From Clostridia bacterium (GTDB lineage Bacteria > Bacillota > Clostridia > RUG12999): a DNA stretch of 52,105 bases. The stretch's first letter is position 1; every line of letters starts with the position of its first letter. The notes under the pieces are model-generated. The model worked only from the letters and a program-made list of their open reading frames with translations. It had not been told where the DNA came from and made no database searches. Both the position numbers and the translations under genes were made by a program. Below are positions 9,423 through 26,209 of this stretch, one piece after another. Location of the stretch: assembly GCA_045534775.1 (NCBI GenBank), contig JAZSKI010000017.1:1-52105 (forward strand). Direction: 5' to 3'.

Positions 9423-9426
9423 AAGG

Positions 9427-9966: not shown

Positions 9967-11139
9967 CTATAATCCTATTTCCCGTAAAAGCTCCTTTGCT
10001 TCGTCGGCCTTTCCCTTCGGGATGTTCCTGCTGTATTCAAGCTCCTGCCGGGTTTCCTTTGCAACGCCGCGAATAAGAAGGTTTATCCATCTGTACACGT
10101 GCATAAAGGGCAGTAGCCATCCATGCTTTAATAATATGGGGTAATACCTTTTCATAGTACAATATGGCAAGAATATTCTGGAAATTATATATTGCACTTT
10201 TCCGCCTTTTTTCTGCTGTTGCACTAATATTTTGTTTTCAATATTTCCGTGGACGCCGCCTGAAATTATAAAATTCTGCATCTTTTCGGTAACAGCATCA
10301 CATTCCTCGCCTTCAAGCCAAACCCTGCTGAGTCTGCGGGCTTTTTCGCTGAATTTCAGTAATTTCCCCCGTTTAAGCAAGCTGTCGCGCTTTTCTCTGT
10401 TTATATTTTCAATATTATCCAAAATCCATAAATCTATAAATGGTCTTATGCCGCAACCGCCTATCTGCAGGTGCTTTGCCATATGTGCTATATGGAAAAA
10501 ATAAAACATCTCGTCTGTCATTTCGTGGTAACAGGTGTATCCTTCTTTGGGTTGCACGTAATTCCATACATCATCAAGCATCTTCGTTATTTCTTTTGAA
10601 ATCCCGTCATCTATCAGTCCGAAATGAAGCTCTACGTGGACTTCTGAAGGCGAATATAGACATATATCATATTCATTCTGTTCGTGTTCGCTATATTGAA
10701 GCTCTTTTACCAGACACGAAACAGCATTTCTTAAATCCTCTTTTTTAACCAGAATATCTATATCGCTGCTTGTCCGCATCCACGGGTTTGGGTAATATTT
10801 TCTTATTTCAGAGCCTTTCAGCGGCACAAAGGAGATTTTTGCTTTTTCAAACACATTACATATTCTTGTAAGCTCATAGTTTAATTTTTCATAACGGTAA
10901 ACCGCTATAAGCGGAACCTGGTCAATATTAGTCGTCCCTTTTTCAATAATATCATTTTTTATGATTCCCATGGCCACAAGCTGTGAAACATCATGTTTTT
11001 GAGCAAGCCGGAGAACTTTTACTAAATTTTCTTTATCTGCCAGAAATTCTTTTTCGGTATCATCTACAGGCTTGTCGCTGAAAGCAGCCCTAAGTGCGGC
11101 AAACAAAGCCTTATTAATATTTTCTTCCATATAAGTCAC
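9967..11139 (-). CDS. Uncharacterised nucleotidyltransferase family protein (last gene of the polysaccharide operon)
   Basis: 390 aa. The SSDIDILV nucleotidyltransferase-fold motif resembles the PF14907-type proteins common in EPS loci. Confidence 0.6.
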   Translation of the reverse strand: MTYMEENINKALFAALRAAFSDKPVDDTEKEFLADKENLVKVLRLAQKHDVSQLVAMGIIKNDIIEKGTTNIDQVPLIAVYRYEKLNYELTRICNVFEKAKISFVPLKGSEIRKYYPNPWMRTSSDIDILVKKEDLRNAVSCLVKELQYSEHEQNEYDICLYSPSEVHVELHFGLIDDGISKEITKMLDDVWNYVQPKEGYTCYHEMTDEMFYFFHIAHMAKHLQIGGCGIRPFIDLWILDNIENINREKRDSLLKRGKLLKFSEKARRLSRVWLEGEECDAVTEKMQNFIISGGVHGNIENKILVQQQKKGGKVQYIISRIFLPYCTMKRYYPILLKHGWLLPFMHVYRWINLLIRGVAKETRQELEYSRNIPKGKADEAKELLREIGL

Positions 11140-11144
11140 CGCCT

Positions 11145-12383
11145 TCAGTCTCTCCTGAACAAGTCTCTTGTATAAACCTTTTCGTCTACATCATCCAAAC
11201 AGCTGTCATATCTGTTGGCAACTATGGCATCGGATATTTTTTTAAATTCCTCCAGGTTATTCACAATTCTGCTTCCAAAAAAGGTACTGCCGTCATTTAA
11301 GGTTGGTTCGTATATGACAACCGTTGCACCCTTTGCTTTAATTCGTTTAATAACTCCCTGGATACTGCTTTGGCGGAAATTATCGGAATTTGATTTCATA
11401 GTTAATCTGTAAATCCCGATAACACAGGGATGCTCTTTGCTTTCATTATAGTCGCCGCAGCTGTAGTAATCATAATAGCCCGCCATATTCAATATCTGAT
11501 TGGCAATAAAATCTTTTCGGGTACGGTTACTCTCTACTATGGCACTCATCATATTCTGCGGTACACTCTCGTAGTTGGCAAGTAACTGTTTGGTGTCCTT
11601 CGGCAAACAATAGCCGCCATACCCGAAGGAAGGATTGTTGTATTGGTCTCCTATGCGCGGGTCAAGGCAAACCCCTTTAATAATCTGTTTTGTGTCAAGT
11701 CCCTTCACTTCTGCGTAGGTATCAAGCTCGTTGAAATAAGAAACGCGAAGTGCCAGATAGGTATTTGCGAACAGCTTTACCGCCTCTGCCTCGGTGCTTC
11801 TCATAAACAGGGTATCAATGTTTTCTTTTACAGCACCTTCCTGCAAAAGTGCCGCAAAGGCTTTTGCCGCCTCTGCTATTCTCGGATTATCCATATCCGC
11901 ACCTATGATAATGCGGCTGGGATACAGATTATCGTATAACGCCTTAGATTCTCTTAAAAATTCAGGGCTGAACATAATATTATCCGTATTATATTTTTTT
12001 CGTACCGATTCGGTGTAGCCTACGGGAATGGTGGATTTAATAACCATTACAGCTCTTGGGTTTACCGATAGTACCGTTTCAATTACAGCTTCAACTGCCG
12101 AGGTATCAAAAAAGTTTTTTGCACTGTCGTAATTTGTCGGTGCGGAAATAACAACAAACTCCGCATCACCGTAAGCTGATTTACCGTCTAAGGTTGCGGT
12201 TAAATCAAGTTCCTTTTCGGCAAAATATTTTTCAATATATTCATCTTGTATAGGAGATTTCCTGCTGTTAATCATCTCCACCTTTTCAGGAATAATATCC
12301 ACCGCCGTTACCTGATGGTGCTGTGCCAACAATGTGGCTATAGATAAACCGACATAGCCGGTACCTGCAACTGCTATTTTCAT
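11145..12383 (-). CDS. ugd: UDP-glucose 6-dehydrogenase
   Basis: [14 protein letters not shown] Rossmann start. Catalytic region [11 protein letters not shown]. 412 aa. Confidence 0.92.
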
Positions 12384-12407
12384 TTTGTACCTCCGAAATG
12401 TTTATTC

Positions 12408-13958
12408 TCACGCTTTCCTCTTTGTAACAAAGCCCTTTATATATGCAACCGTTTCCTTAAAAATCGTTGTTCTGCCGTATATTATCAATGATAATCCGGT
12501 TACTGCTACGGCACAGACCGTTCCGTGAACTATGAAGGAAATCAACGGATTTTCAATTTTTATAAAACTGTTTAACGCCGCTGATACCATCACGCCTAAA
12601 ACAACTACGACAAACCATACGGCATATTCTTTAAAATAATTGATAACCTTTTCTTTAAAGGCATGCTTGTATATTACGTATGGGTCAAACCAAAACTGTG
12701 TCACCAGTCTTGCAATTACCGAGCCTGCATAAACACCGGGCGCTCCCCATACAAGGGCTCCCGTAATTGAAGCTATTATATTAATTATTGCCATTATCAG
12801 CGGTCTATACTGTCCTTGTACGAAGAGACCGTTTGCATCTCTGTAGGATGCGACAAGGGTAGTATTCCCTTTCAGGAAGAAGTCAAAGCACAGAAAGAAA
12901 ACCAGCCATTTATCTATGATATACTCTCCTCCCAGCCAGACATCTCCTACAAATTCATCAAGCAACACATACAGACACACCGAACATAACGCAAAGAAAT
13001 AGGTGCAGACAAAATTCATAATTCTGAAAAGCAAATACTGTCTCTTCCTGTCCTCCGATGCCGCAAGGTTTCCTATGCTTGACGTAACAGAGCTTAAAAA
13101 CTGGAGCGCCAACGCGTAAATCTCGTTTATTATCATGCTATAGTTTGATATGAACCCGACTATCGCCGAGCTGATCATAGAAGATACGATAATACTGTTT
13201 GTTCCGTTAAGAACCGTACCCGATACCTTGTACAGCGATAATGCCTTTACATTTTTAAAAATAGATTTCCTTTCCTCTTTTGAAACCCTTTCCTTCGGAT
13301 AGGCTTTAATGGTTGTGAATTTTTTATCTGCAATCAAGGCACTTACTCCGTTTTGCAGTGCGGTAAACGCTATAGTCAAAATGAGATATAGTATAAAATC
13401 CTTCCATATCGCTATAACAACAATCTGAAAAATTGTTCTTACAATTACAAAAATTGCATTGACTGCCGAAATAACATATCCCTGCTGATTTGCCGTCAGC
13501 AGTGTTGATTTGTAAATTAAAAGATATGATACCGATGTGTTTAAAACATACAGAAAATATATAAGTCTTATATCCTCTTTTACGTTGGGCACATCTGTTA
13601 TAATATGATTAACAAAGGGTAGTAATGCCGCTCCGACTAAAAATACGACCGCCGCAATGGTCCTGTATGCGGCTTTATATAAATTCATCAGTCCCGCTAT
13701 CCGGCAATAGTCCTTTTCAGCCAGTGGTTTATACAGAGAATAGGTTATTGCAGAGCCTATCCCCAGCTCTGCAAAAGACAGCACCATCAGAACCTGCGTA
13801 AAAACTGATGATACGCTTGTATATTCAATGCCTAAATATGCTATGAAAATCGTCCTTGATGCAAAATTCGCAATAAGGGCTACTAATTTATATATGAGCC
13901 CCACACTTGTATTGGCTATTGTTTTTTTTACTCTTGACCCATCACTTCGGCTATTCAT
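12408..13958 (-). CDS. wzx: Wzx-type oligosaccharide flippase (MOP superfamily)
   Basis: 516 aa, hydrophobic throughout with many TM helices. Position in the glycan operon fits. Confidence 0.8.
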   Translation of the reverse strand: MNSRSDGSRVKKTIANTSVGLIYKLVALIANFASRTIFIAYLGIEYTSVSSVFTQVLMVLSFAELGIGSAITYSLYKPLAEKDYCRIAGLMNLYKAAYRTIAAVVFLVGAALLPFVNHIITDVPNVKEDIRLIYFLYVLNTSVSYLLIYKSTLLTANQQGYVISAVNAIFVIVRTIFQIVVIAIWKDFILYLILTIAFTALQNGVSALIADKKFTTIKAYPKERVSKEERKSIFKNVKALSLYKVSGTVLNGTNSIIVSSMISSAIVGFISNYSMIINEIYALALQFLSSVTSSIGNLAASEDRKRQYLLFRIMNFVCTYFFALCSVCLYVLLDEFVGDVWLGGEYIIDKWLVFFLCFDFFLKGNTTLVASYRDANGLFVQGQYRPLIMAIINIIASITGALVWGAPGVYAGSVIARLVTQFWFDPYVIYKHAFKEKVINYFKEYAVWFVVVVLGVMVSAALNSFIKIENPLISFIVHGTVCAVAVTGLSLIIYGRTTIFKETVAYIKGFVTKRKA

Positions 13959-14976
13959 ATACTTTCCCTTCCAATATGCTCTTTAATGCAGGCTTCAGAC
14001 CTTCCTCATCATTCCCGCGGGCAACCTGCATTACTACACTGCAGAAGCTTTCATTACCTTCAATAATATCAATTTCACCGGATTCTGTAACTGCTACATC
14101 CCAAGCCACAATACCGATTTGCGGTACTACCTCTGCCGCTTTTTTAACCGTTTCCACGGCTGCCTCCCAGCAAGGTATATAAAAATCTTCTTCTGAATCT
14201 TCCAAAAACTGCTCTTGTCGGGATTCACATGCCGATAATTTGACAAAAAACGGCGAGTTTATTTTTCCTGTTTCTATATCTATACCCGCCATTTTTCCGC
14301 CTTGGGAAAAATTATCTATTTTGGCATCCTCTCCCCTGCCCGCTCTTACTCCGGCAAACAAAAGAGTTACACCGAAGTCATTTCTCACGGTTACTATCCT
14401 CATGGTGTTTAAGGAAGTAGGGTTTAATTTTTTCAGTTTGGTATGATTGTATATCTGCTCTTCAATCAGATTAAAATTCTGTTCCTTTATGTGTGCCAAA
14501 ATCTCATCAAGATCATCATTTTCCGTAATATTTATTACTTCAACCTGTTTTCCGCTGTCGCCGTAGCTTGCCTTTGCAACAACATTTTTATGCTTCGCTA
14601 AAAATGCTTTTACTTCTTCATCCGACAGCCCATCAGTGCATATCCACGCTCTTTTTATAAACTCCGAAAATTTATCTAAAAACTGTACCTTCTCATGAAA
14701 TAAATTTCTGTATTCTTTTTTGTTGATTTTATCATAAAGCTTGAAATTATAAAATGTCGTTATGTAAGTATTTCTGTTTTCGGGCGAACGGAAATAGAAA
14801 TTCAAATCTCCGTATTCACCCCAGATTGCACCGTATTTTAAGGCACATCCTATCATATCAATAATAATTTTAAAGCGCGATATGTTTTGTTGCTGTGAAA
14901 TTCTTGAAGCTACAGCTATTAAATCTTTCCGCTTATTCTTTTTATACAAATAATACAGTGGGTCTAATATATACAT
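13951..14976 (-). CDS. Sugar-transfer-associated ATP-grasp ligase (putative amidoligase)
   Basis: 341 aa. VAK.S.G.SGK.V, MRIVT and the WDVAV...GE..IIEGN ATP-grasp C-terminal signature. Overlaps the flippase gene by 8 nt. Confidence 0.65.
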   Translation of the reverse strand: MYILDPLYYLYKKNKRKDLIAVASRISQQQNISRFKIIIDMIGCALKYGAIWGEYGDLNFYFRSPENRNTYITTFYNFKLYDKINKKEYRNLFHEKVQFLDKFSEFIKRAWICTDGLSDEEVKAFLAKHKNVVAKASYGDSGKQVEVINITENDDLDEILAHIKEQNFNLIEEQIYNHTKLKKLNPTSLNTMRIVTVRNDFGVTLLFAGVRAGRGEDAKIDNFSQGGKMAGIDIETGKINSPFFVKLSACESRQEQFLEDSEEDFYIPCWEAAVETVKKAAEVVPQIGIVAWDVAVTESGEIDIIEGNESFCSVVMQVARGNDEEGLKPALKSILEGKVYE

Positions 14977-14993
14977 TCCAATTCCTCCTTATG

Positions 14994-16157
14994 TTAATTT
15001 TGTCTTAAAATGTCAGATTTCAGTCTTGCTATAAATTTTTCAAACTCTTCTGCTTCCTTTGCCGTTGCCGCCTTGATTCTATCGTCATAGCTTCCCCTTA
15101 AAGCCTCATCAACAGTATTCAATATATCTTCGTTTTTCGTGCTTTTCCCATCATAGTAAAGCTCCGGCAGGCAAAAGCGGGTTATAAACAAATCCTTAAG
15201 CTTGCCTTCATAATTTTCATCATTATATCCCGAATAATCTATTGCTACTGCAGGTGTTCCCTGTACTAAAGACAGCAGGCAACCGTGAAAATAGCTTGTT
15301 ACTACTACCGCCGCCTCCGATAATACCGCCGCCCATTCAAAAGGCGTCAAATCATAGAGATAATAATCCGCATCTGCCAAAGGATTAAAAAGAGTTATTA
15401 TTTGATATTCGTCGGAATATTTTTCTCTGATTTTTTTAACCATCTCAGATTTTGGCATCATCACGACCATATATTTTTTTCTTAAATCGCATTTATGGGT
15501 TTTAAGTATTCGCTCTTTATAGTTTTCCGCAAGGCTTTTAATTCGTTTTTTATCAATAAACAAAGTCGGGTCACAGCAATGCACCGGTTTCACATTGTCA
15601 TTGCAATATGTTACAAATTTTTCCGTATTGGCATCACGCACACCGATTAATTTCATTTTTTCAAAAGCTGTTGCGCATTCCTCCATCTGCGTCCTTGCCT
15701 CTTCAAGATAGCGCAACCCGTGAACTGATGCCGCATAGGTTACAACCTTGCATTTTTTAAAGTCATATAAGGGAATAAACGCCGATGGATAGCCGTTTTG
15801 CTTCCAGTTAAAAACCGCATCGCTGCCTATAATCAAAATATCATAGTTATTATCAATATATGAATACAGCTCTTTTAAATCCTTAAATTTATTTTTCTTT
15901 GAAAGAGATAACCGGCTATAAGATTTTTTAAAAGCATTGATTTTTTTAATATTATACCAAAATCCCGTCTTAATTCCGTAATGTTTTATATCACATAACA
16001 CATTTATCATTATTCTGCTGCTTTCATCTGATGCAACATAATCAATTATTTCCACCTCATCAGGGAAAAGTGTTGATAATTTTTCTGAGAAGGAAAAGGA
16101 TTGCAAAAATGCGCCGTAATTTATCGGTTTATGAAATGTTAATATGCCTATTTTCAT
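14994..16157 (-). CDS. Polysaccharide pyruvyl transferase family protein
   Basis: MKIGILTFHKPINYGAFLQSF N-terminus typical of CsaB/WcaK/EpsO-type pyruvyl transferases. ATG 16157 follows AGGAGGAG. Confidence 0.75.
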   Translation of the reverse strand: MKIGILTFHKPINYGAFLQSFSFSEKLSTLFPDEVEIIDYVASDESSRIMINVLCDIKHYGIKTGFWYNIKKINAFKKSYSRLSLSKKNKFKDLKELYSYIDNNYDILIIGSDAVFNWKQNGYPSAFIPLYDFKKCKVVTYAASVHGLRYLEEARTQMEECATAFEKMKLIGVRDANTEKFVTYCNDNVKPVHCCDPTLFIDKKRIKSLAENYKERILKTHKCDLRKKYMVVMMPKSEMVKKIREKYSDEYQIITLFNPLADADYYLYDLTPFEWAAVLSEAAVVVTSYFHGCLLSLVQGTPAVAIDYSGYNDENYEGKLKDLFITRFCLPELYYDGKSTKNEDILNTVDEALRGSYDDRIKAATAKEAEEFEKFIARLKSDILRQN

Positions 16158-16176
16158 ATTACTCCTCCTAAAAAAT

Positions 16177-17430
16177 TCAGTTTTCAGCAATATCTGCACC
16201 GAATATCGGTTCTTTTTCCTTTCTGCTCAGGGTAATCCACGCCAAAAGGAAGAAAAAGAGATTGTTAAACCAGATATGGTCTGTTGAAAATACCAATATA
16301 TATATCCAGAAATATATTCTTGCATTTTTCCTTGTTTTATTTCTCATACTTATAAAAATTACGGCAAGTATCAATACTCCTAAAATGCCGAAGTCCAGCA
16401 GGGTGGAAACAAAGTCGTTGGAGTAGTTTTTACTCAGCCCGAAATACAAGTGATATTGGTTAAAGCCCACACCTATAATTTTATTTAAAATGTTATACTC
16501 ATTAAAGAGTTCTATATTACCTAAAAGACGTTGACTCACAGATGAATTGGACCTTTCAAAGCTTGTTTGTATTGTAGTCAGTCTTTTCAGATAGGTATCC
16601 ACAAGGATTTTAAATTCACCGTTGAAAAGGTACAACAGCAAAGCGGCGCAAAAAGCAACTGCAAGTATAATCGTAAGTGCTGCCTTCTGTTTGGCAGTTC
16701 CCGTAAAGTCAAAGAACAAGCTATAAATTAATATAAACAATATTCCCATAACACCCAGCAATGAACTGCTTAAAATGCACGCCAGTCCTATAAGAACAGC
16801 TGTAAATATTTTTTTATTTTTTATGCAATACACCAGAACGGGCAGTTCATAAATCGCAAAATACGAAGGCTCTTCAAAAAAAGAATGTACGCGGATTTGT
16901 CCCGTGTTTTGGTCTATCATAGCACCGAAGGAGTTGTATTCACCCGTTTTAAAGGGCAATACTCCCGAATAAAAGGTATAAATACCTGCCGTCATAGCTA
17001 TAAATTGAAAAATCAGCAAAATTGCGCTTATTACTCCCACACATATTGCCGCCTTATAAAACCATTCTTTATCCACCTGTCCCCAGGCACTCGAAATTCC
17101 AAACCAATATACCACATATACGGCAAATACCTTCATTGCCAGCAAATAGTCCGTATTCCTTGAAGGAGTAATCAGCGATGCGATTAACGTAAACAGCAGG
17201 AAGAATGCCAACATTATCGGGATTTCACTGTCTCTTCTTATACTTTTGTTGATTCCCGTTAAACAAAACAACACCGCTATTATGTCTGTCAGCATTATAT
17301 CAATGCTTCCGACTGTTATTTTATACGGGTCCAATATGGGCATAATACTCAGCACAACAGCAAAAATCAGCGGTAGCTTGCTTTTTTTATCCACCATAGT
17401 TTGTCCGTCTAACCGTCTTTCTCCTATCAT
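16177..17430 (-). CDS. wzy: Wzy-type O-antigen/repeat-unit polymerase (O-antigen ligase-like membrane protein)
   Basis: 417 aa polytopic membrane protein with a large loop. ATGA overlap with the upstream gene. Confidence 0.7.
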   Translation of the reverse strand: MIGERRLDGQTMVDKKSKLPLIFAVVLSIMPILDPYKITVGSIDIMLTDIIAVLFCLTGINKSIRRDSEIPIMLAFFLLFTLIASLITPSRNTDYLLAMKVFAVYVVYWFGISSAWGQVDKEWFYKAAICVGVISAILLIFQFIAMTAGIYTFYSGVLPFKTGEYNSFGAMIDQNTGQIRVHSFFEEPSYFAIYELPVLVYCIKNKKIFTAVLIGLACILSSSLLGVMGILFILIYSLFFDFTGTAKQKAALTIILAVAFCAALLLYLFNGEFKILVDTYLKRLTTIQTSFERSNSSVSQRLLGNIELFNEYNILNKIIGVGFNQYHLYFGLSKNYSNDFVSTLLDFGILGVLILAVIFISMRNKTRKNARIYFWIYILVFSTDHIWFNNLFFFLLAWITLSRKEKEPIFGADIAEN

Positions 17431-18419
17431 ATTTTTAATTCCTCCATTTTGCGGACTATCCTTTCAATATGCTTCGGTGTGCAGTAATAGGATCCGAACA
17501 CTTCCTCGATCCCGTCCTTCACCGTCTGCACGTCAATATTATTTCTAATTATTTCTATTAATTCCGCCGGGTCTTGATTTAAATCAAAGGCTATGGCAAA
17601 AGCCTTGTTTTGAACCACTTTGCTGAAATCTGTCAGACAGGAGCTGTATATGGGAATGACGCCTGCCGATAAGTATGACGAGATTTTGGTGGGCGTTGCC
17701 ACGCGGTTTACCTCCACATCATCTCTTAAAATAAACCCGTAGGTTATTTCTTGAAGCTCCCCTGCCACTTCCGCCTTTGGCACACATTTTATCTCATAAT
17801 TCTTAATTTTATATTTTAAAATAATTTCTTCTGCCTCTTTTGTATTAAAGGTCAAAACCTTAAAAAACGCTTCAGGGACGGCTTCTTCAATTTTTGAAAA
17901 AATCCTGACGGTTTCCTCAAAGCATTGCCACACCGTTATTGACCCCACATAAGTAAAATTTTTTTTTGAATAATCCTTTCTGTCAAACACGGACGTATCA
18001 AGACTCTCATTATAGCAGGGCATAATATACACCTTATCATCAAAGCTTCTGCCCACTAATTTTTCATAATGCTTTTTCATATAATCAGACACAAAAAATA
18101 TCATTTTTGCTTTTTTTATAGCAAAGCAGTCCATATAATTAAGAACTGCCATCCTGAGACGGCTTTTGTTTCTCATATAGGATTCTTCGGCAGCGATTCC
18201 CTGCTGCCATATCATAAAGTTACGATACCCCTTCAGGTAATACATATACGCATCCTTGCCCATTGAAAAAATAATCAAATCATCTTTATCAACGGTTGAT
18301 AAATCGTTGATATTATCGCAGATATATCCCCTTTTTTTCAGAGCATCTGATATTATATTAAGATACAGGTCCAAAACCACCATATTATCATAATTAACAT
18401 ATATATGTGCTTTCTTCAT
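17427..18419 (-). CDS. Putative GT-B-fold glycosyltransferase
   Basis: 330 aa. C-terminal ..ATPTKISSYLSAGVIPI.. resembles a GT-B nucleotide-sugar binding helix. Weak family call. Confidence 0.5.
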   Translation of the reverse strand: MKKAHIYVNYDNMVVLDLYLNIISDALKKRGYICDNINDLSTVDKDDLIIFSMGKDAYMYYLKGYRNFMIWQQGIAAEESYMRNKSRLRMAVLNYMDCFAIKKAKMIFFVSDYMKKHYEKLVGRSFDDKVYIMPCYNESLDTSVFDRKDYSKKNFTYVGSITVWQCFEETVRIFSKIEEAVPEAFFKVLTFNTKEAEEIILKYKIKNYEIKCVPKAEVAGELQEITYGFILRDDVEVNRVATPTKISSYLSAGVIPIYSSCLTDFSKVVQNKAFAIAFDLNQDPAELIEIIRNNIDVQTVKDGIEEVFGSYYCTPKHIERIVRKMEELKI

Positions 18420-18429
18420 TTATTTCCCC

Positions 18430-19341
18430 TCATTCAAATACTTTTTGCCATGCCTTTATAAAAAAGGCTGTTTTTGAATTCCAAAAGCCTTTTTCATATT
18501 TTTCCCACTTCTCGGCATAGCATTTATATATTTCATCTCCGAATAAATCAAACATCACCTTCAGCTGTGCTATGTGAAGCTTATGATAAAACGGACTGCA
18601 AATCCTTTTTCCGTACTCATATTTACTCCAGAATTTCAAATCAAATTCGGGCAATCGGGCTTTTAAGGTATCCAGGGTTTTGTTTAACACCGACAAAACC
18701 TCGGTATCATCAATATATTTTGTATAATCATATAATCCCCATAATAAAAATATCCAGCCGTTCAGGATAAGCGGGTCATGGGTACATTCATACAAATATA
18801 CGCCACCGTCCGAATAATTTGTCGTGCCGCCCTCCGATATTGGTTTAAGCATAAAATCCTTTGCTTTTTTTATTGCCGCGAAATATTTTTCGTCTTTGGT
18901 CTCAATATGTGCTCTTATAAGCATTGAGATACCTTCGCCCTGCGCCATTGAAGAATACGGATGCTTCGGGCTTTCATACTCAAAGGTACTCCACCCGCCG
19001 TCCGGCTGCTGATTTTCCACAGCCCAGTCTGCACAGGCAATAAGCTTCGTTTTATACCTTTCTTCCTTTGTTTTAAGATACAAATCATACGCTCCGAGAC
19101 CGTACTGGAAAATTCCGATTGAAAAATATATCTCCTCGCCCGTATCTACGTGATATTTAGGTACAAGAATTTCCGGGTTATCCTTTGTAACCTTTTCTGT
19201 TAAATCATTATAATATCCCTGTATTTCGGTTTTGGAATAACAAGTCCCCTCGCCTTGATTGACGTGAGAAATGCTTTTCCCCGTCAGCATCTTATACCAT
19301 TTTTTTATCTTATAAACAGAAACGCCCATACTCTTACTCAC
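18430..19341 (-). CDS. D-glucuronyl C5-epimerase C-terminal-domain homologue
   Basis: 303 aa. DGGW...YSSMAQGEGISMLIRAH and NGW.F.L.GLYDY match the animal heparosan glucuronyl C5-epimerase family signature as I recall it. Confidence 0.65.
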   Translation of the reverse strand: MSKSMGVSVYKIKKWYKMLTGKSISHVNQGEGTCYSKTEIQGYYNDLTEKVTKDNPEILVPKYHVDTGEEIYFSIGIFQYGLGAYDLYLKTKEERYKTKLIACADWAVENQQPDGGWSTFEYESPKHPYSSMAQGEGISMLIRAHIETKDEKYFAAIKKAKDFMLKPISEGGTTNYSDGGVYLYECTHDPLILNGWIFLLWGLYDYTKYIDDTEVLSVLNKTLDTLKARLPEFDLKFWSKYEYGKRICSPFYHKLHIAQLKVMFDLFGDEIYKCYAEKWEKYEKGFWNSKTAFFIKAWQKVFE

Positions 19342-20380
19342 CCTCTATTTTATCAATTAACACCTTAACGGCCCGGTCTGTCTGATATTTTTTTGCTTCT
19401 TTTATACAGTTTCCCTTCATATCCAAAAGAATTTTCGGGTCTGAAGCCGCCTGCATAAGTATATCTTCAAATTCCTTCAAATTATCAAATTCGTATCCTA
19501 TTCCCGTTTCTCCGTCCTTCACCACATCAGAAAAGCTTTGCCATTTTGCACAGATAACCGGAATCCCTGCCCCATAGGCATCTATTATCGTCCCCGGGAT
19601 TCCTTCCGTATAAAAATGCGTCGGAAACAAAAGTGCATAATAGTCCTTTAACGCTGTTACGCTTTTATTTGCTTCCACAAAGCCTTTATAGCTTATATAA
19701 TCAGGAAAGCTCTTTTGCTGTTCTTCAAACCACGTTTTGCTTTCCTCCCATATCTGACCGTATATATCAAGGGAAAAAGCTGTATATCCCACTTGTTCGT
19801 TTACTTTTTTAATTATGTCAACCGCTGTCGCTATTCCCTTCTCCTTCATAACCCGGGAAAAGGTACATAATTTCAGCGGTGTGGTTTTGGGATAAATCAG
19901 CTCGCCCTCTGACAGAACCTCTAATTTTTTGCAGTTGGGTAAAATCTCAAGATTTTCAAGTCCCATATTTTCCAGCGCTTTTTTCATAGTAGCCGTTTCC
20001 ACGTAAACTCCACGGAATTTCTTAAGCCCTTCTATCAGCCATTTTTTATCCTCCGCAAATTTGGGCAGCCACCCTCCGATTACCACATAGTGTAATTTTT
20101 TTCTGAAAAAAAAGTTCCATACCCGCAGAAGCGGAACCAAAAGCTTAAGTCCGTTTTCCACCGGCATCATTATCAAATTATCGCATTTCGCCAAAACACA
20201 AGGGATTTTCAAGAGGAAATACGGGATTTTCCTGATACCGCCTGCCAAATCAAGCTTAAGCACGTTTTCTTCTCCAAGCCTGCTTTCAAGCTCTTCGGTT
20301 ATGATTTTAGTCTTTACGGTCTGCCCGTTGAGCAAAGTCTTTCCAAAGCCAAAATGCCCTATTACGCATATTTTGCTCAT
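19334..20380 (-). CDS. Family 4 (GT-B) glycosyltransferase
   Basis: FPT..YTEGIPGTIIDAYGAGIPVI......ETG (EX7E region). ATG 20380 follows GAGGTG; the ORF-track GTG at 20392 overlaps the upstream stop. Confidence 0.8.
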   Translation of the reverse strand: MSKICVIGHFGFGKTLLNGQTVKTKIITEELESRLGEENVLKLDLAGGIRKIPYFLLKIPCVLAKCDNLIMMPVENGLKLLVPLLRVWNFFFRKKLHYVVIGGWLPKFAEDKKWLIEGLKKFRGVYVETATMKKALENMGLENLEILPNCKKLEVLSEGELIYPKTTPLKLCTFSRVMKEKGIATAVDIIKKVNEQVGYTAFSLDIYGQIWEESKTWFEEQQKSFPDYISYKGFVEANKSVTALKDYYALLFPTHFYTEGIPGTIIDAYGAGIPVICAKWQSFSDVVKDGETGIGYEFDNLKEFEDILMQAASDPKILLDMKGNCIKEAKKYQTDRAVKVLIDKIEGE

Positions 20381-20388
20381 ACTGCACC

Positions 20389-21162
20389 TCACATAAAATA
20401 TTTTTTAAAGGCATTGAAGCAGAATCGGATAACATTAATACCTGCCCGCATTTTTCCTATTTTTTCGTCCTGCGTTTGTATCTCCCACACCTGCTTAATA
20501 CTTTTAAATTTATTGGAGGAAAGCGACCCGCTTGCTACTCTGTATCGTACCAAAGCTTCGTTAATTCCGCAGGCAACAGCCCCGTCTCTCAGAAGCTTAA
20601 GCCAGGTTGCATAGTCCTGACCGCCTCGTCTGAGAGGCATGCGGAAATCACCCAGCACAGCTCTGTCTATTACCACCGAGGAGGTGGGAATAACCGTATT
20701 GTGTAATAAATACTTATAATCACAGGTTTCTGTAATGTTTCGTTTTGATTTTATGGTCACTCCGTTTTCATCCATCATCTCAATAGCCGTATAAGAAAAA
20801 GGAGAGCTTTTCAGGTTCATTAGCTCCAGCTGTCTTTCTGTTTTAGAGGGCAACCAGATGTCATCGCTGTCCAAAAAAGCCGCATATCTGCCCTTCGCCA
20901 GCTCCAGCGCTTTGTTACGGGCGGCTCCTGCTCCCATATTTCTTTCCTGAATAAAATACACGATTTCGGGATGAGTTTTTTGCAATTCTTTAATAATCTC
21001 TGCCGAGCTATCCTTTGAACAGTCATCTACCAACACAATTTCTATGTTTTTATAGGTTTGATTAAATATTGAATCCAGCGCGGCGGTTAAGTGTTTTTCC
21101 GCATTATATATGGGCATAATAACCGACACAAGCCCTTCAGCATATTCTCTGTTCATCTGCAC
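20389..21162 (-). CDS. Family 2 (GT-A) glycosyltransferase
   Basis: VSVIMPIYNAEKHL...QTYKNIEIVLVDDCSKDSS and FLDSDD motifs. Confidence 0.88.
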   Translation of the reverse strand: MQMNREYAEGLVSVIMPIYNAEKHLTAALDSIFNQTYKNIEIVLVDDCSKDSSAEIIKELQKTHPEIVYFIQERNMGAGAARNKALELAKGRYAAFLDSDDIWLPSKTERQLELMNLKSSPFSYTAIEMMDENGVTIKSKRNITETCDYKYLLHNTVIPTSSVVIDRAVLGDFRMPLRRGGQDYATWLKLLRDGAVACGINEALVRYRVASGSLSSNKFKSIKQVWEIQTQDEKIGKMRAGINVIRFCFNAFKKYFM

Positions 21163-21174
21163 TCCCCTACCCTA

Positions 21175-22101
21175 TCAATAAATTGGTGTAAGCCATTTTT
21201 TCAGCTTGTCATTTTTCCCCGTAGCTGCTTCCAGATATAGCTTATGAAGCTTTGCCGTTATCTCCCCTATTGTGCCGTCGCCGATAACATATTTATCTAT
21301 GGAAAGCACCGGTGTAATCTCCATTGCCGAACCGCAAAGGAAGGCTTCCCCGCAGGTATAAAGCTCGTTTCTGTCTATAGTTCTCTCAACAACGGGAACA
21401 TTATTTTCCTCTGCTAATTTAATCACCGTATCTCTTGTAATGCTTTCGAGAACACTGTCAGTCAGCAAAGGTGTGACAAGCTTCCCGCCCGATACCATAA
21501 AGAAGCATGAGCCGGGTCCTTCCGATACCTTGCCCGCCTCATTTAAAAACAAGCAGGTATCATAGCCGTTTCTTAAGGCTTCCTTCTGCCCCGCGCGGCT
21601 GTTCATATAGTTTGCGCCGCATTTAATTCTCGGTGAAAGAGTTGTATCAGAAATTCTCCGCCAGGAGGTAACACAGCAATTAAGCCCTTTTTTATTATAT
21701 TCCGCACTTGTTTTTCCCCTCGGAATAGGTGCAACGAACATATTTACGGGATCCTCCGACCCCCACGAGCCAAAGCCGTCAACAAACAAGGTCTGGCGGA
21801 CGGAAAGGTTTTCATCATATTCATTGGCTCTGACAACATCAATCAGCGCTTTTTTCAGCTCTTCTTTCGTATAGGGAACATCTATACGAAGTAATCTTGC
21901 AGAACGAATCAATCTGCTGTAGTGGTCGTCTAAACGGAAGGCATAAAGCTGTTTGTCGGTTTCATTCCAATAACAGGGAATCCCCTCAAATACATTCAGT
22001 CCGAACTGTGCTGTCGGCGCAAGAATATTCACCTTTGCGTCGTTGACATTCATAATCTCGCCTTTAAACCAAATAAATCTGTTTGCAACATCTGTTTTCA
22101 T
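21175..22101 (-). CDS. Class IV (fold-type IV) aminotransferase, branched-chain / D-amino-acid aminotransferase family
   Basis: 308 aa. FGLNVFEGIPCY, NYMNSR and VSEGPGSCFFMV..GKLVTP motifs. Confidence 0.8.
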   Translation of the reverse strand: MKTDVANRFIWFKGEIMNVNDAKVNILAPTAQFGLNVFEGIPCYWNETDKQLYAFRLDDHYSRLIRSARLLRIDVPYTKEELKKALIDVVRANEYDENLSVRQTLFVDGFGSWGSEDPVNMFVAPIPRGKTSAEYNKKGLNCCVTSWRRISDTTLSPRIKCGANYMNSRAGQKEALRNGYDTCLFLNEAGKVSEGPGSCFFMVSGGKLVTPLLTDSVLESITRDTVIKLAEENNVPVVERTIDRNELYTCGEAFLCGSAMEITPVLSIDKYVIGDGTIGEITAKLHKLYLEAATGKNDKLKKWLTPIY

Positions 22102-22113
22102 GCTGTTTCTCCT

Positions 22114-22812
22114 TTAAACCAACAATTCATCATCCGGCAAATGAGCAAGCCTTATGATTTCCTCTTCAGCCAATTTTGCGGCAGTCTCATCATCCAGCGT
22201 TTCATCTGCTTTTTCTTCATAAATATCCTGTTTTTTGAAAACCTTTGCCACGGTTCCGAAAATAATCTTTATATCAAGCCATATTCCCTGTTTTTTAAAC
22301 TTGTCTATGTACTCATTATCAAAGGTTACCTTTTCGTCCCAGTTATTTTCGTTTCTTCCCTTTATCTGAGCAAGTCCCGTTATCCCCGCTTTGACCTCAA
22401 ACCTTTTCTTATATTTTTTGTTCAGGGTGTCATAATCGCCTAACTCATATATAACAGGAGGTCTCGGTCCTACTATGGACAAATCTCCTTTGATTACGTT
22501 TATAAGCTGCGGCAGTTCATCTATACTGCTGCTTCTCAGCCATTTCCCCGATTTTGTTACTCTGGGGTCATTTTCAAAATTAAAAAGTCCCGATCCCATA
22601 TTTTCAGCATCCATAACCATAGTTCTCAGCTTATACATCTTAAAAACTCGCCCGCCTCTTGTTCTGCGGTCCTGTATAAAAAAAATCGGGCCCCTGCTGT
22701 CAATTTTTATTATAATTGCAGCTATCAATAAAAGCGGTGACAGCACCAACAATGCCAATGAGCAGCATACTATATCCATAATTCTTTTTAAAAACAGATT
22801 AAAAGAATACAT
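22114..22812 (-). CDS. Initiating undecaprenyl-phosphate sugar-phosphate transferase (small bacterial sugar transferase, EpsL/PglC-like)
   Basis: Single N-terminal TM helix plus the DELPQLINVIKGDLSIVGPRP signature. Confidence 0.88.
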   Translation of the reverse strand: MYSFNLFLKRIMDIVCCSLALLVLSPLLLIAAIIIKIDSRGPIFFIQDRRTRGGRVFKMYKLRTMVMDAENMGSGLFNFENDPRVTKSGKWLRSSSIDELPQLINVIKGDLSIVGPRPPVIYELGDYDTLNKKYKKRFEVKAGITGLAQIKGRNENNWDEKVTFDNEYIDKFKKQGIWLDIKIIFGTVAKVFKKQDIYEEKADETLDDETAAKLAEEEIIRLAHLPDDELLV

Positions 22813-22829
22813 ACATTGCCTCCTCTTTT

Positions 22830-24050
22830 TTAAAAAGTATATGTATGAAAAATATCATCAAAATTTTCTTTCCTTTTAATTACCTGAGCCTCTTCACCGC
22901 CTATATCTATGATGGGGAAATTAGGTAATATAAACGGAGGTTTCATAACTATGGAATAAGAACCGCAATTGGAAAATATTATATAATCCCCTACCGCTAT
23001 TTCTCCTTCAAATCCGCGGTACATAACATCATTTTCAATGCAGGTATAGCCCACAATATCCGCACCTTTGTAATATTTCCCTTCCCCGCCCGTTGAAACA
23101 ACCTTTATGGGAGGATTTACGTTTCCCATACTGATATTTTTCTGGCTGCCGAGAATCGTAATAAAGGTTTTCCCCCGTACCTCTTTTATTGTCTCAACTC
23201 TGCCGACAAATCGCATAGAGTCGCCTGCCAGAGCCGAGCCGGGTTCTATAATAAGCTCAGGTAGCTCATCAGGAAATTCTTTGGCGATAACCGCCCCCGC
23301 TTCCCGCGCATAATCCTTATATGACGGAATCCGATAGCTGAACTGCTCTTTCAGGGATTCTTCCATATTCCCGTATATTCCGCCGCCTAAATCTATCCTT
23401 TCAGGCAAATAGCCCATAATTTTCGATACCTGTTTTACAAGCTGCGCCATTCCCGTCGCACGTTTATGCCAATATTCAACATTTCTTTTGGCAAAATGAC
23501 ATTGAAGGCTGATTAAATGTACATTACTCAGCCCCTCAATAAATTTAACAGTATTTAAAAATTCATCGCTTTCCGAATCTATGCCAAAACGCGAAACAAC
23601 GCCGTCACCTACGTCAAAATTACATCTGATTCCAACGTTAAAGATGCGGCCTGTGCAGCTTTCCGATAATTCCTTGATCATTTCCAGTTCATGCACGGAA
23701 TCAATATTTATTGTTCCTCCTGTCAAAAGAAGCTCTTTTGCTTTTAAAGAATCCTTAACAGGGCCGTTCCAGATAATTTTTGAAGGCGGCACTCCTACCC
23801 GCAAAGCAATCTCCAGCTCCATATCTGAAACCACTTCACCGTACCCGCCTTTTTTATTAACTATTTTACAAAGCTTTGGTGTATAATTAGTCTTATACGA
23901 ATATGCAATATTAAAATTCGGATATATTTTTTTAAATTCCCGGCTCAGTCTTTCATAATTTTCTTCAAAAATTTTTGAATCCAATATGTAAAAGGCATTG
24001 CCGAATTTTTCCGATAGCTCTTCAAGCCTTTCTCTCGTTATATCACACAT
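22830..24050 (-). CDS. PLP-dependent decarboxylase, Orn/DAP/Arg decarboxylase (fold-type III) family
   Basis: 406 aa. AYSYKTNY (PLP-Lys region), IDLGGG, EPGSALAGD and CGSYS motifs in DAP-decarboxylase order. Confidence 0.75.
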   Translation of the reverse strand: MCDITRERLEELSEKFGNAFYILDSKIFEENYERLSREFKKIYPNFNIAYSYKTNYTPKLCKIVNKKGGYGEVVSDMELEIALRVGVPPSKIIWNGPVKDSLKAKELLLTGGTINIDSVHELEMIKELSESCTGRIFNVGIRCNFDVGDGVVSRFGIDSESDEFLNTVKFIEGLSNVHLISLQCHFAKRNVEYWHKRATGMAQLVKQVSKIMGYLPERIDLGGGIYGNMEESLKEQFSYRIPSYKDYAREAGAVIAKEFPDELPELIIEPGSALAGDSMRFVGRVETIKEVRGKTFITILGSQKNISMGNVNPPIKVVSTGGEGKYYKGADIVGYTCIENDVMYRGFEGEIAVGDYIIFSNCGSYSIVMKPPFILPNFPIIDIGGEEAQVIKRKENFDDIFHTYTF

Positions 24051-24879
24051 TTGTTTTCTCCTTGATTTTGTTTACAATCATATCGACACATTCGGCGATA
24101 TTTTTTATATTCTGTTTAAATGTGATTTCCGATACTTTTCTGATTGAATGCTCATATTCACGGAATATAAACATTCTTTTTCTGAAGCTTTCTTCAAATT
24201 CCTCTATGCTGTCAAAATCCTCAGCCTTACAGAAGCTTCTGGATAAAATCGACATTTTCGAACCAAGCCTGTAATGCTCCATAACTATTTTCTCCGAAGG
24301 CAAAAGACCCTCACCTATGCAGGCAACTCCTCCAAAGCCGTATTTTATACCTTTGTTTTTCATCTTATTGCAAAGCTCTTCAACCAGTCCATCGGCTAGA
24401 AGCTCAAACATAAAGGTCTTTTTATAGCTCAAATGCAAATCATTTAAGCCTATATGTATTTCGCTGAGCATGGGATGCTCCAATACCTCATCAATACATT
24501 CGACTGCTTCTTTTGTTTCAAGCAGAAGAATAGTCGGCACGCGGTTGTTTACAGCTCTGAAAAACCTGTCAACCTCATCACAGGTCTTCCACATAGGAAG
24601 CATTATACATTGAGCTCCCGCCTCAATTACATCATTTATTTCCTTTTCAGAATTTTCATTCCAGGGGTTTATCCTTACCAATAATTCCGATTTTGTAAGA
24701 ATTTTTGATATTTTTCTTACATCCTCCACTGTATGCGTTGACTTAACAGTGTCCATATTTCTTTGTCTTTCTTTTTTGCCGATTGTCTCCAAATCAATCC
24801 ACACACGTGCCACACCGTATTTTTCCGCAATCAATGCCACGTCCGGATTGTTTGTTATATACATAAATTCCAGAGCCAC
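24043..24879 (-). CDS. HpcH/HpaI aldolase / citrate-lyase-beta-like TIM-barrel protein (first gene of the operon)
   Basis: 278 aa. WIDLE...R.N...E...A.....MLPM....E......LLLET.EA pattern. Start is either GTG 24879 or ATG 24864. Confidence 0.55.
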   Translation of the reverse strand: MALEFMYITNNPDVALIAEKYGVARVWIDLETIGKKERQRNMDTVKSTHTVEDVRKISKILTKSELLVRINPWNENSEKEINDVIEAGAQCIMLPMWKTCDEVDRFFRAVNNRVPTILLLETKEAVECIDEVLEHPMLSEIHIGLNDLHLSYKKTFMFELLADGLVEELCNKMKNKGIKYGFGGVACIGEGLLPSEKIVMEHYRLGSKMSILSRSFCKAEDFDSIEEFEESFRKRMFIFREYEHSIRKVSEITFKQNIKNIAECVDMIVNKIKEKTNV

Positions 24880-24957: not shown

Positions 24958-24986
24958 ATTTTAGCATATCTTTGGCTTTTTGTCAA
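24958..24986 (-). promoter_or_regulatory. Sigma-A-type promoter of the polysaccharide operon (TTGACA-17-TAAAAT)
   Basis: Minus-strand TTGACA = 24981..24986 and TAAAAT = 24958..24963, with a 17-bp spacer. Confidence 0.6.
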
Positions 24987-25075: not shown

Positions 25076-26209
25076 TTACTTTAAGGTATATGTATTTTGC
25101 GATGTCCGTTTAATTTTATCCTTCATCTCAAGCAAGGTAATAATTCCATTTACCGCCGATATCGGTTTTTGCACCTTCGCCGCAATCTCATCAATGGTTT
25201 TGGGAAATTCTCTTATGGAATTAATTACTGCCAGCTCATCAGCCGAAATCCCTTCAACAGTCTGCGGCATATCAAATTCAATAGAATTCATATTAAACTT
25301 GCTTGCTCTTATTAAACCGGGATAAATATTCTCATATTCTTCAATTAAATCCTTTGCTTTTGTTATAGGCTTTGCAATAGTTTTAATAAGCTCATTGGGT
25401 CCTTCTGCGTTAGGATTTTTAATATCTCCCGGTACTGCAAAAACATCCCGTTCAGAGTCAAATGCCAGTCTTGCCGTCTTTATGCTGTTTCCGGCGACCG
25501 CGGATTCCACCAGCACCGTTGCAACGGAAATTCCCGCTATAATTCTGTTACGCTCTGCAAAATTCCCTGCAAAGGCACCTGTTTCAAAAGCATATTCGGA
25601 AATGACCGCACCGCTGTTCAGTATTTTGAACATAAGCTCTTTATTGCCTCTTGGATAAACCTTGTTAACGCCGCTTACAAGAGCTGCTGTAGTTTTTCCG
25701 CCTACCGATAATGCCCCTTCGTGGGCAGCTTTTTCAATTCCGTCAGATAATCCGCCCACTACGGTTACGCCCTCGCAGGCAAGCTCTCTTGCAAGTCTGT
25801 AAGCTGTTTCCTCGCCCGTACGACTGCATCTTTTCGTTCCTATTATAGAAACATAAAGCTCCTCGTTGGGCTTAAAATGGTCGCCTCTTACATAAAGCAG
25901 CAGAGGCGGTGCATGGATTGCCCTCAGATTTTTAGGATAGTCCTCCGCATCCATCGTCAGAAATGATACATTATAGTTATTTGCAAACCACATTTCACTT
26001 TCAGCCTTTGATAAATCCTTGTTCATAAGTGCTTCGATTACTTCATCACTTTTTATACCATATTGCTTCAAATCAGCGCGATTAGCCCTGAACAGCTTTT
26101 CAACATTGCCGACATTCCTGTAAATATCACGTGCCGTAGCCCGTCTTGTCCCCATTGCGTTTACAAACCAAAGATGATACATTATATTTTCAAATTTTTT
26201 CTTATCCAC
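25076..26209 (-). CDS. dprA: DNA-processing protein DprA (Smf)
   Basis: 377 aa. Rossmann-like DprA core (IIGTKRCS..GE, VVGGLSDGIE..AH.GAL, VFAVPG) plus a C-terminal winged-helix domain. Confidence 0.9.
   Translation of the reverse strand: MDKKKFENIMYHLWFVNAMGTRRATARDIYRNVGNVEKLFRANRADLKQYGIKSDEVIEALMNKDLSKAESEMWFANNYNVSFLTMDAEDYPKNLRAIHAPPLLLYVRGDHFKPNEELYVSIIGTKRCSRTGEETAYRLARELACEGVTVVGGLSDGIEKAAHEGALSVGGKTTAALVSGVNKVYPRGNKELMFKILNSGAVISEYAFETGAFAGNFAERNRIIAGISVATVLVESAVAGNSIKTARLAFDSERDVFAVPGDIKNPNAEGPNELIKTIAKPITKAKDLIEEYENIYPGLIRASKFNMNSIEFDMPQTVEGISADELAVINSIREFPKTIDEIAAKVQKPISAVNGIITLLEMKDKIKRTSQNTYTLK

Follow-up and report, generated by a model that had tools for sequence, protein, structure and literature searches.

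A 52,105-nucleotide stretch of a Clostridia bacterium genome (GTDB lineage RUG12999; assembly GCA_045534775.1, contig JAZSKI010000017.1), referred to below as the window, carries a polysaccharide operon of 14 genes, all on the minus strand (24879..9967). Its first four genes encode, in order, a HpcH/HpaI-like TIM-barrel protein of the class II (metal-dependent) 2-oxo-acid aldolase type (24043..24879; hereafter HpcH-like), a fold-type III pyridoxal phosphate (PLP) decarboxylase of the Orn/DAP family that is not LysA (22830..24050), a small monotopic phosphoglycosyl transferase (PGT) of the Bac_transf family, the initiating enzyme (22114..22812), and a fold-type IV aminotransferase (AT4; 21175..22101) resembling branched-chain aminotransferases (BCATs). 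Together these genes form a widespread, uncharacterised cassette of gut Firmicutes tied to glycan initiation. We propose, with a probability of roughly 45%, that the HpcH-like enzyme adds pyruvate to the initiating sugar and that the resulting branch is transaminated and decarboxylated before the sugar is transferred by the PGT. The original prediction for this DNA, made from the sequence alone, had picked out the HpcH-like, decarboxylase and AT4 genes together with a distal ATP-grasp gene; all four open reading frames were recovered in place on the minus strand, with Pfam matches to the families it had named. It had remarked neither on the position of the HpcH-like gene at the operon head nor on the PGT gene lying between those of the decarboxylase and the aminotransferase.

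The distribution of the cassette was surveyed in one genome per GTDB species. Relatives of the HpcH-like protein turned up in at least 595 species, and an exhaustive profile search at E≤1e-30 gathered 579 clusters (50% identity). Among the 80 best loci, each analysed over 20 kb, 53 from different GTDB species display the HpcH-like, decarboxylase, PGT and AT4 genes in the same order at the head of otherwise different loci (variant A), most of them with a GT2 glycosyltransferase gene after AT4. Such conservation of order is far beyond chance. Five loci lack only the decarboxylase (variant B), and 8, or 9 if locus L027 is counted, lack both PLP enzymes and carry a gene for a Ldh_2 protein or a D-2-hydroxyacid dehydrogenase (2-Hacid_dh) right after the PGT gene (variant C). 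Another five loci have only the HpcH-like and PGT genes, and six of the 80 contigs were too short to be classified. The PGT gene is adjacent in about 70 of the 80 loci. Identity to the window PGT follows the tailoring variant, at 60-73% for A, 52-56% for B and 40-45% for C, and that of the HpcH-like proteins is 56-66% throughout, a pattern that points to a link with the initiating sugar. Nothing relevant on this gene combination was found in the literature searched.

Because two unrelated 2-oxo-acid reductases stand in for the transaminase, the genomic context provides strong evidence that the product of the HpcH-like enzyme is a 2-oxo acid. The interchangeable tailoring enzymes, all suited to a 2-oxo acid or its carboxylate, comprise the transaminase with or without the decarboxylase, the two reductase families, an AsnB protein in the proteobacterial loci described below, and an Asn_synthase-like PP-loop protein encoded in the tailoring slot after the PGT gene of locus L077 (11997-13568). 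The original idea that the aldolase-like protein, the transaminase and the decarboxylase form a functional series is borne out by the fixed order, by the reductase-swapped variants and by fusions of the HpcH-like domain to reductases and to decarboxylases. The best match of the variant-C Ldh_2 proteins is the L-sulfolactate dehydrogenase ComC (PDB 2x06, 6e-63). A sulfopyruvate, ComA-type route prompted by this ComC-like reductase was rejected, as genes resembling ComA or ComB are absent and the HpcH-like protein bears no likeness to such enzymes.

Family proteins of unusual length revealed numerous domain fusions. The HpcH-like domain is fused to a PGT in five clusters and also occurs in a PGT-GT4-HpcH arrangement (P0190, P0196, P0198, P0223, P0283 and P0215); it is further fused to GT4, to Ldh_2, to 2-Hacid_dh (two clusters) and to the decarboxylase (two clusters, P0192 and P0200, plus L054). 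In P0272 its partner is Polysacc_synt_2, the catalytic domain of the UDP-GlcNAc 4,6-dehydratase family; this gene sits at a contig end and its neighbourhood is uninformative. In at least seven proteins of about 600 amino acids, the N-terminal module of PglF/CapD, with its four transmembrane (TM) helices, is followed by the HpcH-like domain in place of the dehydratase domain. BLASTP relates this module to PglF-like N-termini with E down to 1e-38; it gave no significant Pfam match, only a weak CoA_binding_3 match in P0185. AT4-GT2 fusions were also found (L029, L053 and L061). The fusions of the HpcH-like domain to PGT, GT4 and PglF modules point to chemistry on the initiating sugar more than to the free small amine that the original prediction derived from a simple aldehyde. 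Fusions of PGTs with tailoring enzymes are already known as bifunctional PGTs (BiPGTs), in the description of which no aldolase-type partner is mentioned (PMC11626204).

The organization of the cassette resembles that of the PglF-PglE-PglD-PglC pathways for UDP-di-N-acetylbacillosamine (UDP-diNAcBac) and its relatives. In these, the tailoring genes likewise adjoin, or are fused with, a small monotopic PGT that moves the finished sugar, and the first enzyme is similarly anchored in the membrane by a 4-TM N-terminal module. However, PglF, PglE and PglD tailor the sugar by means of a short-chain dehydrogenase/reductase, a DegT protein and an acetyltransferase, whereas the cassette offers a PF03328 aldolase-type protein, a fold-IV BCAT-like transaminase and a fold-III decarboxylase, three families not known in such a role.

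The data show the gene identities, the conserved order, the variants, the fusions and the active-site patterns; from these we infer every reaction, the carbonyl acceptor and the product. In the module spanning 24879-21175, possibly with the GT2 gene to 20389, which we call the initiation cassette, the HpcH-like enzyme would add pyruvate to a carbonyl to yield a 2-oxo acid, the carbonyl most likely being C4 of UDP-2-acetamido-2,6-dideoxy-hex-4-ulose, the product of PglF/CapD. The BCAT-like aminotransferase would then convert the 2-oxo group of the branch to an α-amino acid, and the fold-III decarboxylase would remove the carboxylate, leaving a primary amine on a 2-aminoethyl branch. Tailoring could take place at the nucleotide or at the lipid-linked stage; the adjacent PGT would move the tailored sugar to undecaprenyl phosphate and the GT2 would extend it. 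The predicted product of the window is a cationic 6-deoxy-N-acetylhexosamine (HexNAc) with a 4-C-(2-aminoethyl) branch, placed as the first sugar of the repeat. The polymer would also carry a pyruvate ketal and a uronic acid, given the pyruvyl transferase and Ugd, and would therefore bear both charges.

The window HpcH-like protein matches PF03328 at 35.8 bits (cutoff 25), a threshold passed by 36 of 36 homologues (best E=1.8e-14), and its AlphaFold2 model is a (β/α)8 TIM barrel (pLDDT 93). A profile of these 36 homologues retrieved from the PDB only class II pyruvate aldolases (HpaI, YfaU and SwHKA; 2e-6 to 2e-5), the sole solved family that it matches. The putative metal ligands E121 and D147 align with E153 and D179 of YfaU, and R69 aligns with the catalytic R70 of HpaI; all three residues are invariant in both the clostridial and the proteobacterial branches of the family. 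The protein therefore shares its barrel, its Glu/Asp metal ligands and its catalytic Arg with the PF03328 class II enzymes (HpaI/HpcH, YfaU/RhmA, GarL, SwHKA). It differs from them by its low identity (11-17%), an additional invariant lid (G34-K35-x-x-R38-Q39...S47), a (H)IGLNDLH motif resembling that of enzymes using phosphoenolpyruvate (PEP), and long C-terminal helices, and its setting is glycan assembly whereas theirs is catabolism. Aldolases of PF03328 accept hydroxylated ketones, including a keto sugar, as pyruvate acceptors (PMC7610986). A PEP-mutase/phosphonate route, from phosphonopyruvate through phosphonoalanine to 2-aminoethylphosphonate, was ruled out by the PEP_mutase Pfam score (E≥0.004) and by the PDB profile, which matches class II aldolases only. 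No motif of the type EDKxxxxxNS, which we take to be that of PEP mutases, is visible in the HpcH-like sequences.

The two PLP enzymes retain their catalytic residues and diverge at their substrate sites. AT4 (Pfam Aminotran_4, 159 bits) passes the NCBIfam cutoffs for IlvE (NF005146, 296.9 for 279; TIGR01122, 277.4 for 245.55), and its best PDB matches are the L-specific BCATs 6h65 and 6gkr. It reaches 110 bits with the D-amino-acid transaminase (DAAT) model TIGR01121 (cutoff 277), and DAAT structures are matched at 1e-22 versus 2.5e-72 for BCATs. The D-amino-acid transaminase suggested originally is consequently not supported. Across 60 distinct cassette orthologues compared with E. coli IlvE (sequence verified as 1i1k), the pocket, which we take to consist of Y31, R40, Y95, W126 and Y129 (E. 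coli numbering; roles from 1i1k/1iye), is altered in 56-60 of the 60: W126 is replaced by K or R in all 60, Y95 by S in 57 and R40 by P in 56, Y31 is replaced by F, and Y129 is deleted. The equivalents of the PLP lysine K159 and of R97, Y164 and E193 are kept. Judging from these substitutions, AT4 is a BCAT-like enzyme with a remodelled substrate pocket, predicted to be opened (Y95S, R40P, loss of W126 and Y129) and made cationic, and such a pocket would suit a nucleotide diphosphate.

The decarboxylase (Orn_Arg_deC_N, 85 bits, and Orn_DAP_Arg_deC) scores 152 bits with the LysA model TIGR01048 (cutoff 297.9). Its orthologues, again 60, hold invariant the AYSYK53TN motif with the PLP-binding Lys53, H185, the GGG loop, EPG and the catalytic C337. 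At the distal site for diaminopimelate (DAP), the Arg of EPGR gives way to EPGS, YNxRxR is replaced by an invariant KPPFILP, and R189 and K370 are new invariant residues. A decarboxylase acting on a D-centre, to which the original prediction alluded, is not supported, in view of the lost DAP-binding residues and the low LysA score, and the D-amino acid/DAP logic as a whole was abandoned in view of the IlvE/BCAT and LysA results. PDB matches include BtrK (1e-13) and FslC (2.8e-19), members of the same fold-III family by sequence that set a precedent for decarboxylation of an α-amino acid within a larger scaffold; here the scaffold would be a sugar nucleotide, and the residues of the substrate site differ. 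SbnH and the N-terminal domain of MccE are other fold-III decarboxylases for tethered amino acids.

The IlvE-level score of AT4 would also be expected if there were no dedicated pathway at all, and the operon merely contained paralogues supplying ordinary precursors (branched-chain amino acids, lysine-like amines, pyruvate or PEP) or a regulator of the PGT sensing PEP or pyruvate. A regulator would be in keeping with P0189, in which a receiver domain (Response_reg) is fused to the HpcH-like domain, and with the reported regulation of PGTs by partner proteins (PMC12802240). We nevertheless regard this explanation as highly improbable: hundreds of species share the same gene order and coupling, the active-site residues of the HpcH-like protein are invariant across phyla, the pockets of both PLP enzymes are systematically remodelled, and reductases or AsnB can take the place of the tailoring enzymes.

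A proteobacterial branch of the family extends the sugar-borne scheme. A full-length homologue of the HpcH-like protein with 35% identity is encoded on Rhodobacteraceae plasmids, and all invariant residues are common to the clostridial branch and to a large proteobacterial branch. In all four proteobacterial contexts (L088/L089, L094, L095 and L096), the HpcH-like gene is translationally coupled to a gene for an AsnB-type glutamine amidotransferase, and in three of them it is preceded by a LegC-like aminotransferase gene. The neighbours of this gene pair include NeuB, NeuA, NeuC, acetamidino-forming genes and PGTs, and L096 also contains PglF-like dehydratases. These contexts recall shewanellose, a C-branched sugar that is also present in Morganella morganii. 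The sugar of Shewanella putrefaciens A6, 2-acetamido-2,6-dideoxy-4-C-(3'-carboxamide-2',2'-dihydroxypropyl)-D-galactose, occurs with an 8-epilegionaminic acid derivative, which matches the legionaminic-type genes around the proteobacterial HpcH-like gene (PMC4052302). We infer that shewanellose is a 6-deoxy-HexNAc whose C4 bears CH2-C(OH)2-CONH2, that is, pyruvate added to a 4-ketone with its carboxylate amidated: the C4 branch has three pyruvate-derived carbons and a hydrated 2'-ketone, and the AsnB paired with the HpcH-like enzyme would give the carboxamide. Shewanellose would then be the adduct proposed for the window, amidated instead of transaminated, whereas in the window the branch would undergo transamination and decarboxylation, yielding a sugar so far unreported. 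The literature searched does not describe any genes for the biosynthesis of shewanellose. We tentatively raise the possibility, which we would not put at even odds, that the HpcH-like family constitutes a new class of sugar-nucleotide C-C branching enzymes, i.e., pyruvate aldolases acting on 4-keto-6-deoxy-HexNAc, serving both the shewanellose route in Proteobacteria and, alongside a recruited BCAT and a fold-III decarboxylase, unreported initiating sugars in hundreds of gut and rumen Firmicutes. The Firmicutes products would be 6-deoxy-HexNAc carrying a 4-C-(2-aminoethyl), a 4-C-alanyl or a 4-C-(2-hydroxy-2-carboxyethyl) branch.

Several observations weigh against a sugar-borne branch. First, the window contains no gene for a 4,6-dehydratase, and for about half of the cassette loci none lies within ±10 kb; the acceptor would then need another source, or a different carbonyl would serve. 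Pointing in favour of the branch, a PglF/CapD-like dehydratase gene lies directly upstream of the cassette in 14 of the 47 variant-A loci that have at least 9 kb of downstream sequence, the set in which ATP-grasp and UDP-sugar dehydrogenase genes were also counted, and 16 of the 20 PglF-bearing cassette loci are devoid of a DegT gene to use the PglF product. Absence of the dehydratase in cis is weak evidence, since a dehydratase indispensable to them is likewise not encoded in the nonulosonic acid (NulO) loci L088, L094 and L095. Second, the window PGT lacks the diNAcBac fingerprint. In UDP-diNAcBac-specific PGTs this consists of a GLLLP loop motif and a C-terminal aromatic box (PMC10186338); at the loop position the window PGT (Pfam, 212 bits) reads ...NMGSGLFNFENDPRVT..., and in NCBIfam it resembles hexose-1-phosphate transferases (EPS_sugtrans/WcaJ-like). 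The PGTs next to HpcH-like genes in the clostridial and proteobacterial branches exhibit no special similarity to one another (33-49% identity), an unremarkable range that makes the comparison uninformative. Typing of the PGT substrate was dropped on account of the missing fingerprint and this unremarkable similarity.

Third, the aldolase assignment is made by family. The His of the DxEH motif (PMC7610986) is not conserved in HpcH-like proteins, which have D29-L-E31-T/Y/V instead, and Foldseek places the model as near pyruvate kinases and CitE-like lyases as HpaI/YfaU (E around 1e-9, 11-17% identity). The HpcH/HpaI-type aldolase of the original prediction thus stands as regards PF03328, the barrel, the Arg and the metal ligands, and not as regards this His. 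Fourth, AT4 scores as a bona fide IlvE, an enzyme normally devoted to small free 2-oxo acids. Fifth, the fusions of the HpcH-like domain involve almost every kind of neighbour and therefore indicate a shared pathway rather than consecutive steps. Finally, the link to shewanellose combines a published structure with gene context in other genera. Published tables of M. morganii O-antigen clusters list no aldolase or AsnB; as the shewanellose serotype may not be included, they neither support the link nor constitute a valid test of it. The missing dehydratase in cis, the IlvE-like AT4, the family-level aldolase call, the fusions that leave step order aside and the nature of the shewanellose link are what hold our estimate for the sugar-borne model at about 45%.

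Some of these same features would be accommodated if the cassette made a free small metabolite derived from a 2-oxo acid (a hydroxy acid, an amino acid or an amine, depending on the variant), possibly with a distal anionic group such as a phosphate or a carboxylate, that an unrecognised activity close to the PGT, e.g., the GT2, attached to the first sugar. Membrane tethering would then serve for channelling only. The BCAT-level score of AT4, the preference of PF03328 enzymes for small molecules (PMC7610986) and the lack of a dehydratase in cis in half of the loci agree with this possibility, as does the ComC-like reductase, which prefers anionic 3-substituted pyruvates; the K/R substitutions of AT4 and the R189 and K370 of the decarboxylase would suit an anionic tail. 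Yet the cassette has no conserved kinase, nucleotidyltransferase, ligase, transferase or acyltransferase that could attach a free amine or other such molecule, and neither the fusion to a dehydratase domain nor the swap into the PglF membrane module finds an explanation. The AsnB pairing and the structure of shewanellose (PMC4052302) moreover provide a concrete sugar-borne alternative. On balance we consider a free metabolite unlikely, and retain tailoring on the initiating sugar as the preferred scheme.

The remaining enzymes of the original prediction belong to the distal part of the operon. In that scheme, pyruvate and a small free aldehyde would yield a free amino alcohol, which a sugar-transfer-associated ATP-grasp protein (ATPgrasp_ST, PF14397, 135 bits; 13951..14976), a probable amidoligase, would ligate to the carboxylate of glucuronic acid (GlcA) supplied through ugd (11145..12383). 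All the enzyme families needed are present within the operon. In the HS:2 capsule system of Campylobacter jejuni (Cj1437, Cj1436, Cj1438C, Cj1435, Cj1441), which similarly combines a transaminase, a PLP decarboxylase and an ATP-grasp protein, the TupA-like domain of Cj1438 has been shown experimentally to amidate GlcA once this has been incorporated, using serinol phosphate or ethanolamine phosphate obtained through Cj1437 and Cj1436 (PMC11800397, PMC11800379). A UDP-sugar dehydrogenase (UDPG_MGDP_dh) accompanies ATPgrasp_ST in the window, in L091 (as a split gene), in L092 and in L093, and the L090 stretch shows only a UDP-GlcNAc 2-epimerase. By analogy with Cj1438C, this co-occurrence favours ATPgrasp_ST being a uronic-acid amidoligase that uses the carboxylate provided by ugd, and this part of the original prediction is supported.

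Its coupling to the amine cassette is not. The four families do occur together in L031, L090 and L091, but these loci, from uncultured gut Clostridia, are the closest to the window and all of the same locus type. Among the 47 variant-A loci, ATPgrasp_ST was found in one, ATPgrasp_TupA in four and a UDP-sugar dehydrogenase in six, leaving 46 without ATPgrasp_ST and 41 without the dehydrogenase. Only 64 close homologues of ATPgrasp_ST were found. Two of the four ATPgrasp_ST contexts examined (L092 and L093) have no cassette, and the gene order PS_pyruv_trans, ATPgrasp_ST and membrane protein of about 510 amino acids is kept in L090-L093 with or without it. The constant partner of the cassette is the PGT. 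The genes ugd and ATPgrasp_ST thus represent a module separate from the amine cassette. The C. jejuni parallel also breaks down in its details: the two PLP enzymes there act in parallel, on dihydroxyacetone phosphate and L-serine phosphate, whereas the original scheme places them in series; the ATP-grasp is TupA-like there and ATPgrasp_ST here (PMC11800379); the C. jejuni system requires a haloacid dehalogenase (HAD) phosphatase, and the window encodes none like Cj1435; and, unlike in HS:2, the PLP enzymes here are genetically independent of the ATP-grasp protein. As this scheme in addition leaves the fusions of the HpcH-like domain to PGT, GT4 and PglF modules unexplained, we consider a free amino alcohol ligated to GlcA quite improbable.

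We rather predict that a second module, consisting of ugd and ATPgrasp_ST with the pyruvyl transferase and a 516-amino-acid membrane protein, makes the uronic acid and probably amidates it. Because the L092 and L093 contexts have no cassette, the amine used need not come from the initiation cassette. L093 encodes a D-Ala-D-Ala ligase (Ddl) and an alanine racemase (13688-15762) two genes 3' of ATPgrasp_ST, after the membrane protein of about 510 amino acids and a 2-epimerase, in the place of the cassette enzymes; from this hint, the ATPgrasp_ST family may attach D-Ala or D-Ala-D-Ala to uronic acid. A second ATPgrasp_ST paralogue is encoded in L090 (13408-14295).

The rest of the operon completes the picture of a polysaccharide locus. 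The stop of the HpcH-like gene overlaps the start of the decarboxylase gene by 8 nt (ATGTGTGA). Upstream, between a terminator-like hairpin of dprA and the HpcH-like gene, lies the top-scoring promoter-like site of the region (24958..24986, minus strand; TTGACA-17-TAAAAT, TG-extended, 11/12), a consensus match only. As the numbers of promoters and terminators predicted across the region do not exceed the shuffled expectation, only the position of this best site was used. Downstream of AT4, a TuaG-like GT2 glycosyltransferase (20389..21162; 243 bits with the TuaG model, below its cutoff) probably adds the second sugar. It is followed by a serotype-specific block (14994..20392), found as such only in L031, L090 and L091 and assigned with Pfam and NCBIfam, which encodes a GT4 (19334-20392), a C5-epimerase-C-like protein (18430-19341), a TuaH-like protein (17427-18419), a Wzy-like protein (16177-17430) and the polysaccharide pyruvyl transferase (PS_pyruv_trans; 14994-16199). 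The TuaG-like GT2, the weakly TuaH-like protein of 330 amino acids and Ugd make up a gene set like that for teichuronic acid. The protein with a heparosan-type glucuronyl C5-epimerase C-terminal domain (within 17427-19341) suggests an iduronic-acid-type residue in the polymer.

After ATPgrasp_ST come the multi-pass membrane protein of 516 amino acids (12408..13958), which has no Pfam match and is a probable flippase, then ugd, and lastly a NTP_transf_5 protein (9967..11139, 131 bits). The best model for Ugd, a UDP-glucose 6-dehydrogenase-like protein, is NF011631, whose cutoff it misses (581 bits for 757); it passes that of the NDP-sugar dehydrogenase subfamily TIGR03026 (309 bits for 190). 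The NTP_transf_5 gene likewise closes variant-C loci and L093. Together with a VanZ-like gene (9471-9851, minus strand) it closes the window locus, and both genes also stand at the end of the unrelated ATP-grasp locus L093 (19848-21017); in L051 and L077, VanZ forms the N-terminal part of a fusion with the PGT. NTP_transf_5 and VanZ recur as an accessory pair, so far unexplained, in clostridial glycan loci. A hairpin with a 19-bp stem and a T-run (9423-9465), between the convergent genes 8565-9422 (plus strand) and the VanZ-like gene, is probably a bidirectional terminator.

Elsewhere in the window, a protein of 1021 amino acids with S-layer homology (SLH) domains is encoded at 149-3214 (minus strand). 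SLH domains anchor to pyruvylated wall polymers, and the locus might make an anchoring polymer and not a capsule, since this protein and the pyruvyl transferase are encoded in the same window. On the other side of the operon, mnmE, tsaD and dprA and the genes for a GDSL protein and formate-tetrahydrofolate ligase (FTHFS) occupy 25076-31117 on the minus strand, and the replication-origin region (31232-40163) carries dnaA, dnaN, recF, gyrB and gyrA on the plus strand. The cumulative GC skew reaches its minimum at about 32 kb, and GC content falls to 30-34% between 32 and 36 kb. The start of the polysaccharide operon is about 6 kb away from the origin, and its genes are read in the direction of replication. 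A PolC-type DNA polymerase III with PHP, exonuclease and alpha domains is encoded further on (43899-48218, plus strand); taken with the SLH protein, it assigns the organism to the Firmicutes.

If the proposed chemistry is true, it would give a function to a large family annotated as 'aldolase/citrate lyase family protein' (579 clusters, at least 595 species) and would supply the missing enzymology of shewanellose, a known C-branched bacterial sugar. It would also add a new class of partners to the bifunctional PGTs, and it predicts that in abundant gut and rumen Firmicutes the repeats of capsules or wall polymers have new branched, cationic sugars at their reducing end. Zwitterionic polysaccharides, in which free amines stand next to carboxylates, are known immunomodulators, and the polysaccharide of the window would be zwitterionic given its pyruvate ketal and uronic acid. 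Should the sugar-borne version prove wrong, there would still be a widespread and so far uncharacterised cassette that leads from a 2-oxo acid to an amine and is wired to glycan initiation. It is open to direct testing in cultured carriers, among them Blautia schinkii DSM 10518, Anaerovibrio lipolyticus LB2005 and Selenomonas caprae.

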